A stretch of DNA of 63,997 nucleotides, filler included, from Malassezia furfur (taxonomy: Eukaryota): NCBI GenBank assembly GCA_052055015.1. It is 24 parts of 24 records of this genome, joined end to end, with 100 filler letters (N's around TTAATTAATTAA, not from the genome) between each part and the next. Parts side by side here need not be neighbours in the genome. Positions count along the whole stretch, not along the records: positions 59,382 to 61,932 come from JBQJIT010000889.1; 23 more parts are not named here. One strand, given 5' to 3'. This document shows positions 48,733 through 63,813 of the stretch, one piece after another; position 1 is the first letter of the stretch, and every line of letters begins with the position of its first letter. Below the pieces are notes generated by a model. It ran no database searches. It was not told where the DNA came from and saw nothing but the letters and a program-made list of their open reading frames with translations. A program made the position numbers and the translations under genes.

Positions 48733-49188
48733 CGGCGCCGGCGTGCTCGCGGCCGGCGCCGCGCCGCGCCCAAACACGTACGGGCCCAAGATGTGGGTAT
48801 ACAGCAGGTAGGCGGCATACGCCGGGATCTGCGTGAGAAAGCGACCTACCACCGCGTACGTCCACCAGAACACGCGCGACACGAGCGTCGACGCGATGTG
48901 CACAAACCACGTAATGTACACCACGTCAAACATGTACGCCGTCAGCCCGCTCTGCGCCAGGTCCTCGCCGGCGTGCGCCATCGACGTGAGCTGCCAGCCG
49001 AGGAAGGCAGCGATCGCCTCGGTCACGACATACCGCGCGATGCTCGTCGCCGTGAACGACGCAGGCGTGCGCCAGAGCCCATAGTTGCCCAGCAGGTACA
49101 CCGTGTTGGACACCAGGAAGCCGTACGTCAGCGTCGTCACGGCACTCGCGTTGCCGGACGCAATGCGTTTCTGTGCGCCGCGCGCCAT
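48733..49188 (-). CDS. SND2: SRP-independent targeting protein Snd2/TMEM208 (3'-partial); probable intron 48829-48849
   Basis: MA.GAQKRIA..N, GEDLAQSGLTAYMFDVVYITW, WWTYAV|IPAYA. Confidence 0.85.
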
Positions 49189-51401: not shown

Positions 51402-52753
51402 GCGCGCTGCTCCTCCAGCGCGCGCTTCTCTGCCTCGGCGTCGCGCAGCTGCGCCCAGCGTGCGTCGGCGTCGATGCGCGCACCGCCCCGCACGTCCCAC
51501 AGGAACGGCGCGAGGTTGATCGCGCGCTCGACGCAGAAGGGCGGCAGTGTGCCCGCAGCGCCGTCGCGCTGCACGTTGAGCAGGAGGACGTCGGCGGCGT
51601 GCGTGATGAGCAGCGAGTCCATCTCGCTGCTCGCGCGCAGCTTCGACACGAGGCACGCATGCACTGTCGTATCCGTGTCGGTGTGCATGAGCGTGATGGT
51701 CGCTGTGGGCTGTGCGGCGCCGCTCGGCGGCACGGCGCCGTCCACCGGCGCGCTCGGCAGCGCGACGGCCGCAAACGACTGGAAGAGGTGTGCGGCGCGC
51801 GCCTCGGCCTCGGCACGCACGGCCGCGGTTTCGGCGCGCGTCGTGCACACGACCTGCTCGGTGACGAGGTGCGTGGCATCGAGGTAGGCGTGCACGAGCG
51901 CCTCGAGGAGCACCTCGAGCAGTGCGGGTGTGTCGGCGTTGCGGCTCGCGCGCAGGATCACGTCGGACGGCACGTACTCGAGCACGTCGCCGAGCACGAG
52001 CACCGCGCGCGCCGTGTGCTGCATCGTGGTGAACAGCGTCTGGATGCGCTGCACCCACGCGAGGTGCGCCCGGCTTTCCGCGGGGACGGGCGTGTCGTCC
52101 GGGCGGCGGAGCGCCGGCGCGCCGCGCCAGTAGTCCTCGAGCGAGACGATCGTCTCGGCGCGTGGGAAGCGCAGGAATGCGTCGCGTGCGCGCGGCACGG
52201 CATAGAGCGCCTGCAGCGCCAGGGCGACGGCGGTGTGGGCCGGGACTTTGGGGACGAGCACCACGGGGCTGCGTGAGTCGTGCAACATACGCTCCGTCTG
52301 TGCGCCGTCGGTCAAACGCGCGCATGTCTTCGGCGTGTGCGGCATCGCGCTGCGTCTCGGACTGGACGCTCTCGGCGAGCACGCGCATCAGTTCCTCGTC
52401 GTCCGACGCGCGGTGTCCGTCGGGCGCGGGCTGTTCGGCCATCGACGCGGCCATCGCCTTTTGCAGCTCCACGTCCTCGTCATCGCGGTCCGTGTACGAG
52501 GGGGGCGCGGGCAGCGCCGCGGGCGCGGCCGACTGGGCGGGCGGCGCCGAGGGGGGCGCGGGCCTAGGCGCCGGCTCGGGCGCCGACATGTCGAGCAAGC
52601 GGTTCATTGCGCGGTCGACATCGTGCCCCGTGTCCTGCGTGAGCGTGGTGCGCGCGGCGTACCTGGAGTGCCTGTGCGGCCTGCTCGGCCGTGCACCCGA
52701 GAATCGCCTGCAACTGCCTGCGTGAGTCGGCGCACGTACTGCACGGCGTCCAT
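51402..52753 (-). CDS. UBA-like + double UIM protein (3'-partial); introns 52718-52739, 52635-52662, 52269-52290
   Basis: spliced MDAVQQLQAILGCTAEQAAQALQDTGHDVDRAMNRLL, UIMs DVELQKAMAASM and DEELMRVLAESV. Confidence 0.75.
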
Positions 52754-55959: not shown

Positions 55960-56569
55960 CTACTTGGACGCCGACTGCGTCAGCGGGCCACGTACCTCGA
56001 TCAGCGCCGTGATCTGCTTCTGCCGCGCACGCAGCGCCCGCACCGCTGCGCTCTGCTCGCGCTGCCGCGTAGTAAGCTCGGTCTCGAGCGCCTTGGCCTG
56101 CTGCTCCAGCCTGCGTCAGTCGTGTAACGCACCGCCGCCGCTCCTCGAGCTCAAACTGCAGGCGATGTACGAGCAGCAGATGCGCGTCCTCGCACACCGC
56201 CGGCGTGCGGCTTTCTTCCGGCGCGTGCGCCAAAAACGCGTCCATGGGCCGCAGTGGTACCTCCTCGTACACCGTGTCGAGCGGGTCGCACGCGGCAATC
56301 TGTGCCTCAAGCTGCGTGCGCTCGTATACGAGGTGCTGCAGCTCGCGTGCGGCCGCGTCGACCTCGTCGCGCGCCGTGCGCACCTGCGCACGCGCCGCGG
56401 CCTGCGCCGCGTATGCCGCGCGGTTCGCGGCCTTGAGCTGCGCAAGCGCCTGTGTGCTCTGCATTAGCACCTCATAGCGCCCTGCATCGTCGCCTGCGTA
56501 CGGCGGCGCGTGCGTGGGCAGCGCCAGCACGGCGTGCGCCGCGTGCTGGGCGTCGGTGCTCGTCGTCAT
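55960..56569 (-). CDS. THO complex subunit Thoc5/FMIP-like short protein; introns 56111-56132, 55975-55995
   Basis: LKAANRAAY...R.EVD...LQHLVYE..QL..QI..C, HLLLVHRLQFELEERRRL. Confidence 0.8.
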
Positions 56570-59769: not shown

Positions 59770-60815
59770 CTATCCCTTGTGCGTCTTGAACAGCACCAAT
59801 CCGCCCAAAGCAATCGCGTAGCCGAAGAACTGCAGGCCGGTGACCGAGCTGCCGAGCAGGAACATGCTGCCGAGGATCAGCAGGATGTCCTTGAGCACGC
59901 CCGCGAGCGTGAGCGTGAGCGAGGAGGCGGCGCCGATGAGGAACACCGAGGCGATGTTCAGCCCGAACGCCACGCCCGCGTTGCTGAGCAGCACAAACGG
60001 ACCGAGCTGCGACAGCGCGGCGAACGGCGCCCAGCCCTCGGCGAACGGCAGAATGACCATGTTCAGCGCCGCGCACACGGGCGAGAAGTAGTACAGGCTC
60101 ACCAGCGGGTCCATCTTGAGGCCCTGCAGCAGCACCTGCACCATGACCAGGCGCGTGCTCTCAAAGGCGATGGCGAGCACCTGGTAGGTGAAGCCGGTCA
60201 TGTTGAACTCGGTCTCGCCGTACGACGCAAGGCACACGCCCACCGAGATCATCATCACGATGCCCGTGAGCGTGCCCGAGAGCTTCTTCAGGCCAAAGGC
60301 GAACGAGATGAGCAGCACCGCAACCGGCGTAAACGCCTTGAGCATCTGGATGAAGCTCACACTCAGCGTCAGGTACGCCATGTTGCTGAACACCAGGCTG
60401 CCCGAGAAGAGCGCGCCGATGGGCAGAATGTTGCGCGTCCAGCGCTCCGTGGTCATCTCCACATTGTTGAGGCCCTTGAGGAGCGTCGTGTAGCGTGCGA
60501 GGAGGCGCGTGCCGATCGCGGCAAATGCCATGTGGAACGTGGTGAGGAACACGGGGAAGGGGTACTTGAGGTTGTCGAGAATGTACCTGGCGTGAGTCGC
60601 GTCACCTACTTGTTGTACACGATCACGCTGCTGCTCAGCGCGATCCAAATGCCGATGATCACCGCGGGGTGCATCTTGGGCTTCGACGCGGCGGCCACCG
60701 CAGGCTGCGGCAGGCTCGTGCTCGCGTGCTCGCCCTTGGCGCCGTGCGACGATGGCCCGCCCTTTTCCGCGGGGTCTGGCTGCTGCATGGGGACACTGGT
60801 CGGGGGGTGCGACAT
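59770..60815 (-). CDS. triose-phosphate/nucleotide-sugar transporter (TPT/DMT family); intron 60587-60609
   Basis: WIALSSSVIVYNK|YIL, FPVFLTTFH, SVSFIQMLKAFTPV, MDPLVSLYYFSPVC, LTLAGVLKDILL. Confidence 0.92.
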
Positions 60816-60971: not shown

Positions 60972-61610
60972 TCAGGCGGCGGCGAGCGGCGTGCACGCGG
61001 ACGCGACGGCCGCCAGCGCGCGGCGCAGCGTCGCGTCGAGGTCGCCGCGGGGGCACGCGTACAGCGCGGCGTTCGCGTGGAAGAGGTAGAGGAAGACTGC
61101 GTGAGCGGCGCACCTACCATCGCATAGGGGCACGGCGGGGTCGCGCACGACGTCGCGCAGCGTCGCGACGAGGCGCGTGCGGCACCGGTTGCGCACGACG
61201 GCGTGCTTGTGCACCTGTTTCTTGCTCACGAACACGGTCGTGCGCAGGATGCGTGTGCGGTCAGGGTCGCCGGCGAGCGCGGCGCGCGCGGCGTCCGCGA
61301 GGCGCGCGTGCCGTGCGTGGTGTGTCTCGGGCTTGGGCGGCCACGGGAGCCACGGCGGGCCCAACGCGCGCGGCATCGTCGTGGCATCGTCGGGGACTGC
61401 AAGATGGAGGGGGTATAATTGCAACGTAAACAGCTCGCTTCGGAATTGCGCGGCAGGGCGGCGGCGGACGTGCGCTGCGGCGTTTGGCGGCTGCAGCGCC
61501 GAGGGGGGCAGGCGCACGACGTGTGCGCCGCGCCGGAGCGCCGTCGCCATGCGCTCGGCCATGGTACGCAGTGGAGGAGGCGTGTAGGTCGCTACGTGAA
61601 ATGGGCGCAT
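60972..61610 (-). CDS. bacterial-type RNase P protein (RnpA)-like, putative mitochondrial; probable intron 61097-61117; alternative ATGs 61562 and 61550
   Basis: VFVSKKQVHKHAVVRNRCRTRL matches the RnpA VSKK..K.AV.RNR.KRR signature; upstream RL..FRSELFTL and downstream hydrophobic strand + helix. Confidence 0.7.
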   Translation of the reverse strand: MRPFHVATYTPPPLRTMAERMATALRRGAHVVRLPPSALQPPNAAAHVRRRPAAQFRSELFTLQLYPLHLAVPDDATTMPRALGPPWLPWPPKPETHHARHARLADAARAALAGDPDRTRILRTTVFVSKKQVHKHAVVRNRCRTRLVATLRDVVRDPAVPLCDGRCAAHAVFLYLFHANAALYACPRGDLDATLRRALAAVASACTPLAAA

Positions 61611-62032
61611 TTGCTGAATCAGCACGACGAGGCCGTAGGCAGGCACACGACACCGTGGGGGGGCGTGTGCCGTGCAGGAGCGCGCGCCGTGCTGGGTGCG
61701 GGCGCGCGCTGCGCGTGTGCGCGACGTCCTTGTAGACGCCTGTGCCTGCCGAGTCCCGCGCCGTGCGCAAGGCTGCGCTGGGAGCGCCGCGGCCTGGCTG
61801 GTGCCTGGCCGGTGCCTGCGCCGTGCGATGCTGACTCATCCATTTTTGGGCGTGGTTGCCACCGTTCTTCGAATGGCCACGACCGATTCGGTGCCGAGCG
61901 TACAAGACGCTGGCGCGGCGCCGCGTGCAGATNNNNNNNNNNNNNNNNNNNNNNNNNNNNNNNNNNNNNNNNNNNNTTAATTAATTAANNNNNNNNNNNN
62001 NNNNNNNNNNNNNNNNNNNNNNNNNNNNNNNN

Positions 62033-63813
62033 CCTGCGGCGCACCATCGAAGACGCACGCGTCGCCGCGCGGGGCGCCGGCGCACGCGGTGGTGTGCGCG
62101 CGCGACGACGCGAAAGTGCCTGCGGCGCTGCGCACCGTCGTGCTGCCCGTGGACCGTGCCGTGCTTGCGCGCCTTGCCACCGAGGCACGCGCCTGGGGCG
62201 CTGCGGGCGCGCACGTCGGCGCCTTGCTGGCTCGTGGCGTGCCCGGCGAAGTGCCGTACGCCGACGCGCTCGACCCGCCGCGCCGGCTGCTGCGCGTCGT
62301 GCCCGTGCTGCAGTCGGCCGACGAGGCCTACGTCAAGCTGCGCTACCTGTTCCTCTTCACCGACGTGCTGCTCGTGGTGAAGCCCGTGCATGTGCCGACG
62401 CAGCCCGCCGAGCTCTTGGCGTTCATTCTGCAGCGGCTGCACCAGCCGCCGGACCTGTACGAGCCGTATGTACCCCTCGCTGCGCTGCCGCTGCGTACGC
62501 TGCGCCTCGGCGCCGGCGCAGCGGTGCGCGCCGTGCGCCGCGAGCGCGATCGTGCGTGCGCTGTGCGCCATGTGCGCGCGCTGCACATGCACCTTGCCGC
62601 GGCGCTGCCTTCCGCCGCGCACGAGCTGCGCGGCACAGGCGGCGCCGACGCGACGGCGTGCGCGGAGGTGCTTTTCCTCCTGCCCGAGCTCGACCGCGCG
62701 TCGGTGTCGCTCTACCTGTTCGATGCGGCGCATCGCGCGGTGCTCGATGCGTACGTCGCGCAGCACGCATTCGCCGGCGTGCCGCTCGAGGCGGCGCTGC
62801 GCATGCTGCTCGTCGACCTGCGCTTCCCTGCGCGCGTCGGCGACGTCGAGGCGCTCCTGCGCGCGTTTGCGGCGCACTGGGTACAGTGCAACCACGCCGA
62901 GCTCGCGCGCGACATGTCACGCGCGCTCGCCCTCGAGCTTGCGTGCGCGCTCGTGGCGCTCAACGACGCGCTGCACGCGCCGGACGCGCGCGCCGCGCCG
63001 GGCCTCGCGCCGCACTTTGATGCCCACGTGTCGCTCGAGCAGTTTGTGCGCACGGTGCGTGCGCACGACGTGCGCTACGCGTGGTCGGACCGCGCGGTGC
63101 ACGAGGCGTTCCTGGCGATCAAGACGCACCCGCTCGCGCAGGCGTCGGCACACGCGCCGCGGCGCATTGTGCTCGATGCCACGGCGCTTGCCGAGGGCCT
63201 CGTGGTCGGTGTGCCCTCGGCGAGCGTCGTGGTGGCGCTCGACGCGCCCGATCCCCACGTGCGCATCAAGCTGCTCGGCGACGCGCTGTACATGGACCCG
63301 CCCGTGTTGACGTTTGCGCACTCGGCCACCGCCGAGTTCACCGTGTGCAGCACCGCGCCGGGCGAGCACAACCTCGCGTTCGTGCGCGTCGGCGCGCATG
63401 CACCGCTCTACCCGCCGACCGCCGAGGCGCGCGCGCCGTGGCGCGCGCTACCACGCACGCTGCCGCTCGTCAGCGAGCGGCACACGACGCGCCCGGCACT
63501 CACACTGCACACCACGGCGCCGGACGCGCCGACAAGCACGCTGCAGCTGTATCTTGCGGACGCCGCTGCGGCGCACCACGTCGTGCGCCTCCTCGAGGAG
63601 CAGCTCGCGGCGCTCGGCGCGACCGAGGGCGATGCGCCGCGCTCGGCCGCCGAGCGCCTCGCGGACCGCGTGCTCGTCACGGGGCTCGGCATCGACGCAG
63701 GCAAGAGCGCGCGCCACGCCGCCGCGCCCGCCACGGGGCAGGCCCTCGTGCGCACCGTGCGCGAACATAGCCTGTTGCTTGGCTTGCTGGACGAGCCAAG
63801 TTTCCTGTCGTAG
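62033..63813 (+). CDS. PH + divergent Sec7-domain protein (5'-partial)
   Basis: RYLFLFTDVLLVVKP (PH); VLDAYV..HAFAGVPLEAALR.LL..LRFP, LLRAFAAHW..CN, ALVALNDALH (Sec7). Confidence 0.75.

Follow-up and report, generated by a model that had tools for sequence, protein, structure and literature searches.

A divergent RnpA-like gene in Malassezia, candidate for the protein cofactor of a bacterial-type mitochondrial RNase P

In bacterial RnpA, the helix that carries the RNR motif binds the catalytic P RNA of RNase P, while the central cleft of the protein binds the leader of precursor tRNAs (pre-tRNAs). Among eukaryotes, the prasinophyte Ostreococcus tauri is described as having a nuclear-encoded RnpA that serves organellar P RNAs (PMC4919922; PMC7050145), for which function together with P RNA and rescue of Escherichia coli have been reported (work cited via PMC4919922 and PMC7050145). 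For the jakobid Andalucia godoyi, a mitochondrial RnpA is listed as a prediction (PMC7050145). Fungi are described as devoid of PRORP (PMC10941002; PMC3858429), and the identity of their mitochondrial RNase P proteins beyond Saccharomyces cerevisiae is stated to be unknown in PMC3790967. Our literature search, which did not extend to most subscription journals, brought up no paper that describes an RnpA from a fungus. Here we analyse a 64-kb stretch of DNA from Malassezia furfur (the window), which carries on its minus strand, at 60972..61562, a gene for an RnpA-like protein of 189 residues after removal of a predicted intron. The product is very probably a true, if divergent, homologue of RnpA (RnpA/C5). 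We further consider it fairly probable that it works with a P RNA as a subunit of mitochondrial RNase P, for which we infer the location, the RNA partner and the activity.

The preliminary description of this locus had placed an RNR signature of bacterial type at 61170-61229, and this is exactly where it lies: the stretch VSKKQVHKHAVVRNRCRTRL, residues 112-131 of the protein, covers the end of strand beta3 and the start of helix alpha2 in the form VSKK-x5-AV-x-RNR-x-R-x-R (61170..61229, minus strand), a region recognised by PF00825 (stretch 103-137), by hhalign and in the family alignment. The other elements named there could be located as well, with FRSELFTL at 61422-61445, the Pro-rich GPPWLPWPPKPETH at 61320-61361 and the R..VFVSKK strand at residues 104-115. 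Beyond the motif, evidence comes from profile comparison. When 32 sequences of the fungal family were aligned by hhalign with 30 RnpA sequences of bacteria (E. coli K-12 and 29 Pseudomonadota genomes, retained from a search that had matches in 61/61 genomes and of which 30 loci, one from E. coli, were kept), the probability was 93.3% and the E value 2.7e-7 over 75 columns; the controls, one reversed and five column-shuffled, gave P 0.12-0.81. The aligned span runs from beta3 through alpha2 and beta4 to alpha3, residues 104-191 of the window protein facing residues 43-117 of E. coli RnpA. Within it, the equivalents of positions that hardly vary in bacteria, E. coli R46, K53, K54, A59, R62, N63, R64, K66 and R74, are kept in 22-32 of the 32 members, fungal K114, K115, A121, V122, R124, N125, R126, R128 and R136 corresponding to E. 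coli K53, K54, A59, H/V60, R62, N63, R64, K66 and R74, respectively. The equivalent of E. coli F73 is kept as Leu, and a new conserved Arg, R130 (30/32), occupies the position of L68.

The relatives of the window protein give a consistent picture. PF00825 was matched at E<=1 by 11 of 13 close relatives, the best at 2.4e-6, and at E<=0.1 by 13 of 19 more distant representatives, the remaining six having no match; four of these 19 (P0016, P0019, P0022 and P0032) exceed the 22.3-bit cut-off of the family. A precomputed PF00825 label is present on the M. yamatoensis and Acaromyces proteins.

For the entire domain, the comparison with RnpA depends on predicted structures. Two AlphaFold2 models were used, model 1 for the intron-retained translation with a 32-row alignment (predicted local distance difference test, pLDDT, 90.7; predicted template modelling score, pTM, 0.87) and model 2 for a spliced orthologue (pLDDT 89.7; pTM 0.85). 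In a Foldseek search against the PDB, ranks 1-11 were all bacterial RNase P proteins, the best being 6d1r with E 2.8e-3 and probability 1.00. VIA-align placed 1a6f first (Z 10.9, root-mean-square deviation 3.1 Å, 108/113 residues), followed by ten further RNase P entries at Z 6.5-10.8, with the first unrelated chain at Z 6.0. A search independent of Foldseek, of model 2 against 48,161 chains, gave three chains with Z>=8, each of them an RNase P protein, namely 1nz0_A (10.8; 105/109 residues), 6ov1_A (9.9) and 2ljp (8.4), the next chain having Z 6.7. The structural alignment begins at model residue 13-16, which is RnpA residue 5-9, and within the model span 13-190 it takes in 105-108 residues of bacterial RnpA chains of 109-113 residues. 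Its N-terminal part, residues 13-52 (61407..61526, minus strand), comprises the RLP motif, a short helix and strands 38-41 and 45-52. On the models, then, the complete alpha-beta-beta-beta-alpha-beta-alpha fold of RnpA is present, and the order of elements proposed in the preliminary description agrees with the secondary structure, as does its identification of an RnpA-type protein with the motif, the profile alignment and the fold taken together; the check by AlphaFold and Foldseek that it had proposed points to RNase P proteins and to no others at Z>=8. Sequence thus shows homology over two thirds of the domain, and the models show identity of fold over its full length. Domain IV of EF-G, RNase PH and exosome subunits, the transducer domain of MutL and GyrB and the 5'-sensor of RNase E are weak structural neighbours (Z 3-6.7), sharing what we take to be the 'ribosomal protein S5 domain 2-like' superfold; they differ in lying far below the RnpA matches, in covering less of the domain and in having no RNR motif.

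The same results bear upon the proposal that the protein acts in the nucleus or cytosol, where it might, for instance, partner a nuclear-encoded RNA or belong to nuclear RNase P/MRP in the manner of Pop5/Rpp14. Pop5 and Rpp14 are structurally similar to bacterial RnpA, and the shortness of the N-terminal extension would suit such a location, but we consider it quite improbable, for the sequence match is to the RNR motif that is specific to RnpA. At E<=10 the Pfam matches of the protein are PF00825, ET and Lipase_GDSL_2 only, and neither Pop5 nor Rpp14 is among the four families matched by 13 members at E<=1. All strong fold matches are to bacterial RnpA, and the 50 matches listed per search include neither a nuclear nor an archaeal subunit of RNase P, absence from such a listing not being proof; the N-termini of the family, moreover, resemble presequences (see below). 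A Pop5-like subunit was therefore set aside as improbable, on the strength of the RnpA-specific RNR match and of strong fold matches that, among those listed, are restricted to bacterial RnpA.

The RnpA-like protein has a recognisable family. Searching 1.84 billion representative proteins, phmmer retrieved 26 sequences at E<=1e-3, 15 at E<=1e-10 and 6 at E<=1e-30. The named relatives, all labelled 'hypothetical protein' in public records, come from M. brasiliensis, M. obtusa, M. yamatoensis, M. vespertilionis and Malassezia sp. CBS 17886 and, beyond the genus, from Tilletia walkeri, T. indica, T. horrida and Acaromyces ingoldii (two copies); the closest is MBRA1_002717 of M. brasiliensis (P0002), with 183/189 identical residues. 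A profile search from 14 distant members gave four proteins, three of Tilletia and one unnamed. The two Acaromyces paralogues, P0032 and P0036, lie on one contig of 4.5 Mb, and only one of them bears the precomputed PF00825 label. Orthologues of 23 to 97% identity have their motifs in common across Malassezia, Tilletia and Acaromyces, and the family, as judged from these alignments, is conserved across Ustilaginomycotina. Its range past this subphylum is taken solely from cluster labels of the ESM Atlas, in which language-model neighbours carry PF00825 on 22 of the 30 nearest clusters and on 29 of 30 named clusters. All clusters listed are eukaryotic, Basidiomycota and Zoopagomycota being the commonest, and they include a basidiomycete cluster of 98 members (PF00825 on 18%) and a zoopagomycete cluster of 77 members (PF00825 on 82%). 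We treat these neighbours as leads, which suggest that the family is wider in fungi than the alignment shows.

Three blocks are conserved in the alignment of 32 sequences: the F45 strand, the motif GPPWLPxPP...TH..RH and the RNR block LRT.V.VSKK.VHK.AVVRNRCRTRL..ALR. In the first, F45 (strand 45-52) is conserved in 29/32 members. In the RNR block, A121, V122 and R124 are invariant (32 each), K114 and K115 are found in 31 and 30 members, and conservation is lower at N125 (25), R126 (26), R128 (28) and R136 (25). The second block has no counterpart in bacterial RnpA. Measured against the latter, the fungal protein has a surplus made up of 12-14 residues at the N-terminus, a portion of the alpha2-beta4 loop and, chiefly, residues 53-103 between beta2 and beta3, an insertion of about 50 residues (61254..61406, minus strand) with a Pro-rich segment and a helix at 83-96, modelled at pLDDT 90-95, that bacterial RnpA does not have. 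The motif WLPxPP...TH..H within it is conserved as strongly as the RNR motif, with W71 in 29, L72 in 31, P73 in 31, T80 in 30, H81 in 31 and H85 in 27 of the 32 sequences; GPPWLPxPP...TH lies at 61320..61361 (minus strand), and H85 just downstream. In Tilletia and other distant members, the motif is followed by a variable, partly acidic spacer. Together with H118 (30) and C127 (26), which stand beside the RNR motif, H81 and H85 form a set of conserved residues absent from bacterial RnpA; to go by their conservation, they could bind a metal or offer a new surface for contacts. The insertion is specific to the fungal family and probably makes an additional contact, be it with a P RNA of reduced form or with some other protein.

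Where would this protein work, and with which RNA? It is strongly basic, with a net charge of +16, and begins with a basic extension, residues 1-14 (MAERMATALRRGAH; 61521..61562, minus strand), a candidate mitochondrial presequence that is modelled as a low-pLDDT helix ahead of the aligned domain. Its first 30 residues contain four Lys/Arg and one Asp/Glu, and for the window protein and 21 relatives together the corresponding figures are 1-7 and 0-2. The preliminary description had pointed to an N-terminus free of acidic residues and like a presequence, and the N-termini of the family are indeed basic and nearly without acidic residues; such a composition is compatible with presequences, through which the protein would be targeted to mitochondria.

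It is on the side of the RNA that the case is weakest. Scanned with Rfam at gathering thresholds, the 64-kb window gave 0 matches. The preliminary description had supposed that mitochondrial DNA of Malassezia encodes rnpB, which holds for M. slooffiae but for no other species in a mitogenome survey of the genus, M. brasiliensis CBS 14135 being among those covered (PMC10113387); the preprint of that survey has the same result. Yet the RnpA-like protein is kept in at least five Malassezia species other than M. slooffiae. With rnpB annotated in M. slooffiae only, present annotations do not bear out a simple co-occurrence of RnpA with mitochondrial rnpB, unless P RNAs of reduced form have escaped notice. 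Elsewhere in basidiomycetes, rnpB is reported in the mitogenome of Sporisorium scitamineum (PMC4466345) and in those of U. maydis, Schizophyllum and Microbotryum (PMC11277600). Most basidiomycete mitogenomes are described as having no recognisable rnpB (PMC3790967). The last source also describes minimal mitochondrial P RNAs of fungi, reduced to P1 and P4 and hard to annotate (PMC3790967), and since such RNAs exist, a missed, reduced P RNA in Malassezia is plausible, though unproven.

These data leave room for an alternative in which a descendant of RnpA, after the loss of its P RNA, came to be employed as a basic RNA-binding protein, probably still mitochondrial, in another step such as RNA chaperoning, the processing of transcript ends with another nuclease or ribosome assembly, the insertion serving as a new interaction surface. 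The retention of the protein in at least five Malassezia species other than M. slooffiae, the only surveyed one with an annotated rnpB (PMC10113387), speaks for such re-use, and so do the changes at R67, R70 and E71 of the RNR helix, accompanied by the rise of a new motif that is equally conserved. Nevertheless, we regard it as rather unlikely, because the RNR core and the KK pair are near-invariant, as expected if the ancestral RNA contact has been kept. In addition, with PRORP described as missing from fungi (PMC10941002), these mitochondria must depend on some RNase P, while P1/P4 RNAs are said to be difficult to annotate (PMC3790967) and mitochondrial rnpB is reported from several other basidiomycetes (PMC4466345; PMC11277600).

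Taking everything together, the explanation towards which we lean is that of a nuclear-encoded RnpA that is imported into mitochondria, where an RNA-based RNase P would use it as protein cofactor. It is favoured by the precedents of nuclear RnpA, by the reported absence of PRORP from fungi, by the unknown identity of fungal mitochondrial RNase P proteins and by N-termini compatible with presequences. Several observations weigh against it. At the level of sequence, a HMMER comparison with PF00825, as proposed in the preliminary description, did return this family as the best Pfam match, but at E 0.012 and 16.1 bits it falls below the curated cut-off of 22.3 bits, although such a threshold concerns detection and not biology; TIGR00188, the sole NCBIfam match, is likewise below threshold (E 0.025; 14.8 bits against a cut-off of 38.35), and both matches are confined to the RNR region. 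Family profiles run against PDB sequences did not retrieve RnpA, yielding unrelated weak matches only, two with the first profile (E 0.063 and 0.19) and three with the second (E 0.44-1.4), and hhalign against the single E. coli RnpA gave a poor score (probability 1.8%; E 0.028). For the N-terminal third, even hhalign with relaxed settings found no sequence match to RnpA, and because this part cannot be aligned, the leader-binding aromatic residues of helix 1 are not identifiable. The positions of bacterial G48, R67, R70, E71 and D84 are altered in the fungal family, and Foldseek found nothing in the PDB at E<=0.001. To these points must be added that the N-terminal extension has only about 12-14 residues, as well as the restriction of annotated rnpB to M. 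slooffiae discussed above.

The gene itself was delimited as follows. The minus-strand frame extends from stop to stop over 60972..61646, with 224 codons counted from a GTG at 61646, and offers three in-frame starts, this GTG, ATG 61610 and ATG 61562, before the stop at 60972-60974. We have taken as the putative start ATG 61562, from which the protein reads MAERMATAL... and which is shared with the annotated M. brasiliensis orthologue P0002 and with most other relatives. The coding region is accordingly set at 60972..61562 (minus strand) from the translation of the open reading frame (ORF), the start of P0002 and a check of splicing; it consists of two exons and has 196 codons unspliced and 189 after splicing. 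Exon 1 (61118..61562, minus strand; 445 nt) encodes the N-terminal extension, the N-terminal strands of RnpA, the insertion, beta3 and the RNR helix, and exon 2 (60972..61096, minus strand; 125 nt including the stop) encodes beta4 (VFLYLF) and the C-terminal helix. The open frame upstream, 61563..61646 on the minus strand, with GTG 61646 and ATG 61610, is probably 5' untranslated region rather than coding sequence, as suggested by the annotated and most of the unannotated orthologues, which start at the position of 61562. The span of 60972..61610 given in the preliminary description therefore contains a real ORF, but its upper bound, an in-frame ATG further upstream, has no support from the orthologues listed.

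Between the two exons lies the predicted spliceosomal intron of 21 nt, at 61097..61117 on the minus strand, which reads GTAGGTGCGCCGCTCACGCAG on the coding strand and has the form GTAGGT...CTCAC..CAG. It is in frame and would read through as GRCAAHA if unspliced; as its length is a multiple of three and it contains no stop, the frame alone cannot arbitrate on splicing. Two other lines of evidence do. In the window, the strict pattern GTAGGT-N-CTCAC-N-AG is found at three sites where 0.03 would be expected, and of the two sites other than this one, one is the 23-nt intron of the next gene downstream; a relaxed pattern of 5' site, branch and 3' site occurs at 28 sites against a mean of 2.66 in shuffled sequences, the modal length being 21 nt (7/28). 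The residues that the intron would encode are, exactly, those absent from P0002 and the other annotated orthologues, whereas the ORF-only translations of five relatives (P0007, P0008, P0009, P0014 and P0015) stop at the intron site. The spliced product has no internal stop and aligns with P0002 with 183 identical residues and one gap column, and residues 141-160 have pLDDT of 93 and 97 in the model of the spliced orthologue versus 85 and 78 in the intron-retained model. Judged by motif statistics and orthologue comparison, the intron is real, and the earlier prediction of it is borne out. Across the window, intron-like elements of the form GTNNGT...CTNAY...YAG are mostly 21-34 nt long and lie on the minus strand in 25/28 cases, examples being 48829-48849, 52718-52739, 55975-55995 and 60587-60609, all on that strand.

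The genomic surroundings are equally informative. On the same strand, 157 nt downstream, follows a gene of the triose-phosphate-transporter family (Pfam TPT, E 5e-19), with exons at 60610-60815 and 59770-60586 (minus strand) separated by a 23-nt intron (60587-60609) and a spliced product of 340 residues without stops. Two public gene models of M. vespertilionis (P0034 and P0035) join the transporter and the RnpA-like gene in one, probably a mis-annotation, and from these fused models it follows that the adjacency of the two genes is conserved. Upstream of the RnpA-like gene, past an assembly gap, there is an ORF of 574 codons with a Sec7 domain (62089-63813, plus strand; PF01369, E 3.9e-21). 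It begins directly after the scaffold gap, and its 5' end may be missing. The gap, at 61934-62033, is a run of N with TTAATTAATTAA in its middle and stops in all frames, and looks like an artificial scaffold linker; N totals 2024 in the window, and adjoining pieces are possibly not true neighbours.

With this evidence the notion of an artefact can be assessed, whether the gene be taken for bacterial contamination, for a very recent arrival by horizontal transfer, for a pseudogene or for an ORF that arose by chance in DNA rich in GC (guanine plus cytosine). The window has a GC content of 69.7%, a composition at which spurious long ORFs are common, and six-frame ORFs overlap the locus on both strands, all of which would favour a chance ORF; but the locus has a spliceosomal intron typical of the window, fungal neighbours on the same scaffold piece, orthologues of widely differing identity that share its motifs and a confident fold prediction, leaving an artefact extremely improbable. 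Contamination and a chance ORF were rejected for these same reasons. The RnpA-like gene is a resident fungal gene, given its TPT neighbour with an intron of the same type, its own spliceosomal intron, the GC content of the window and the fused models of M. vespertilionis. The preliminary description had likewise argued against contamination, a claim upheld by the intron, by the TPT and Sec7 neighbours of fungal type and by the recurrence of the TPT adjacency in M. vespertilionis.

In functional terms, the favoured reading of an imported RnpA that assists a mitochondrial P RNA would imply the following steps. The protein would enter mitochondria by means of its short basic N-terminus and serve there as protein cofactor to an RNA-based RNase P of bacterial type; its RNR helix and basic sheet would hold in place a catalytic P RNA together with the 5' leader of pre-tRNAs in the mitochondrion, and the P RNA would then cleave off that leader. 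The gene would in this case probably be a remnant of the tRNA-trimming enzyme that the mitochondrion had as a bacterium. A wider scenario, which we put forward tentatively, is that the mitochondria of basidiomycetes, and probably also of zoopagomycetes, still run on RnpA and P RNA, with the RNA of most Malassezia too reduced or relocated for annotation and the insertion compensating for lost RNA elements; RnpA would then be the ancestral protein of fungal mitochondrial RNase P, and Rpm2 its replacement in budding yeasts. Already known were eukaryotic RnpA proteins in prasinophytes and a jakobid, plus automatic PF00825 labels on a few fungal entries. What the literature searched does not describe is a fungal RnpA that bears an intron and an insertion. 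For the make-up of fungal mitochondrial RNase P outside budding yeast, a conserved nuclear RnpA offers a concrete handle; the gene would also extend the few eukaryotic cases of RnpA to a major fungal lineage, which bears on how bacterial RNase P was lost or replaced during the evolution of mitochondria.

How, finally, does the Malassezia protein compare with the systems described so far? With bacterial RnpA/C5 (1a6f, 1nz0, 6d1r, 3q1q chain A and 7uo0 chain A), it shares on the models the fold of the whole domain, at Z 10.8-10.9, and the family keeps the core KK...AV.RNR.(K/R) with the closing (F/L)R, while it differs in being encoded by a nuclear, intron-bearing gene and in having the N-terminal extension and the insertion of about 50 residues. 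With the RnpA proteins of prasinophytes and the jakobid, it has in common relocation to the nucleus, high divergence and retention of the RnpA domain, as those are described in PMC4919922 and PMC7050145. In contrast, the organelles of these organisms are described as carrying an annotated rnpB of clearly bacterial character and the mitogenome of M. brasiliensis, in the survey, as having none annotated; the Malassezia case is also fungal and has an insertion motif specific to its family, this comparison being made by description. With the RPM1 RNA and Rpm2 of S. cerevisiae, the likeness lies in the presumed job, that of a nuclear-encoded partner in an RNA-based mitochondrial RNase P (as presented in PMC4919922 and PMC3790967). 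However, Rpm2 is described as a large protein of 105 kDa without similarity to other RNase P proteins (PMC4919922), whereas the protein of Malassezia is small and RnpA-like.

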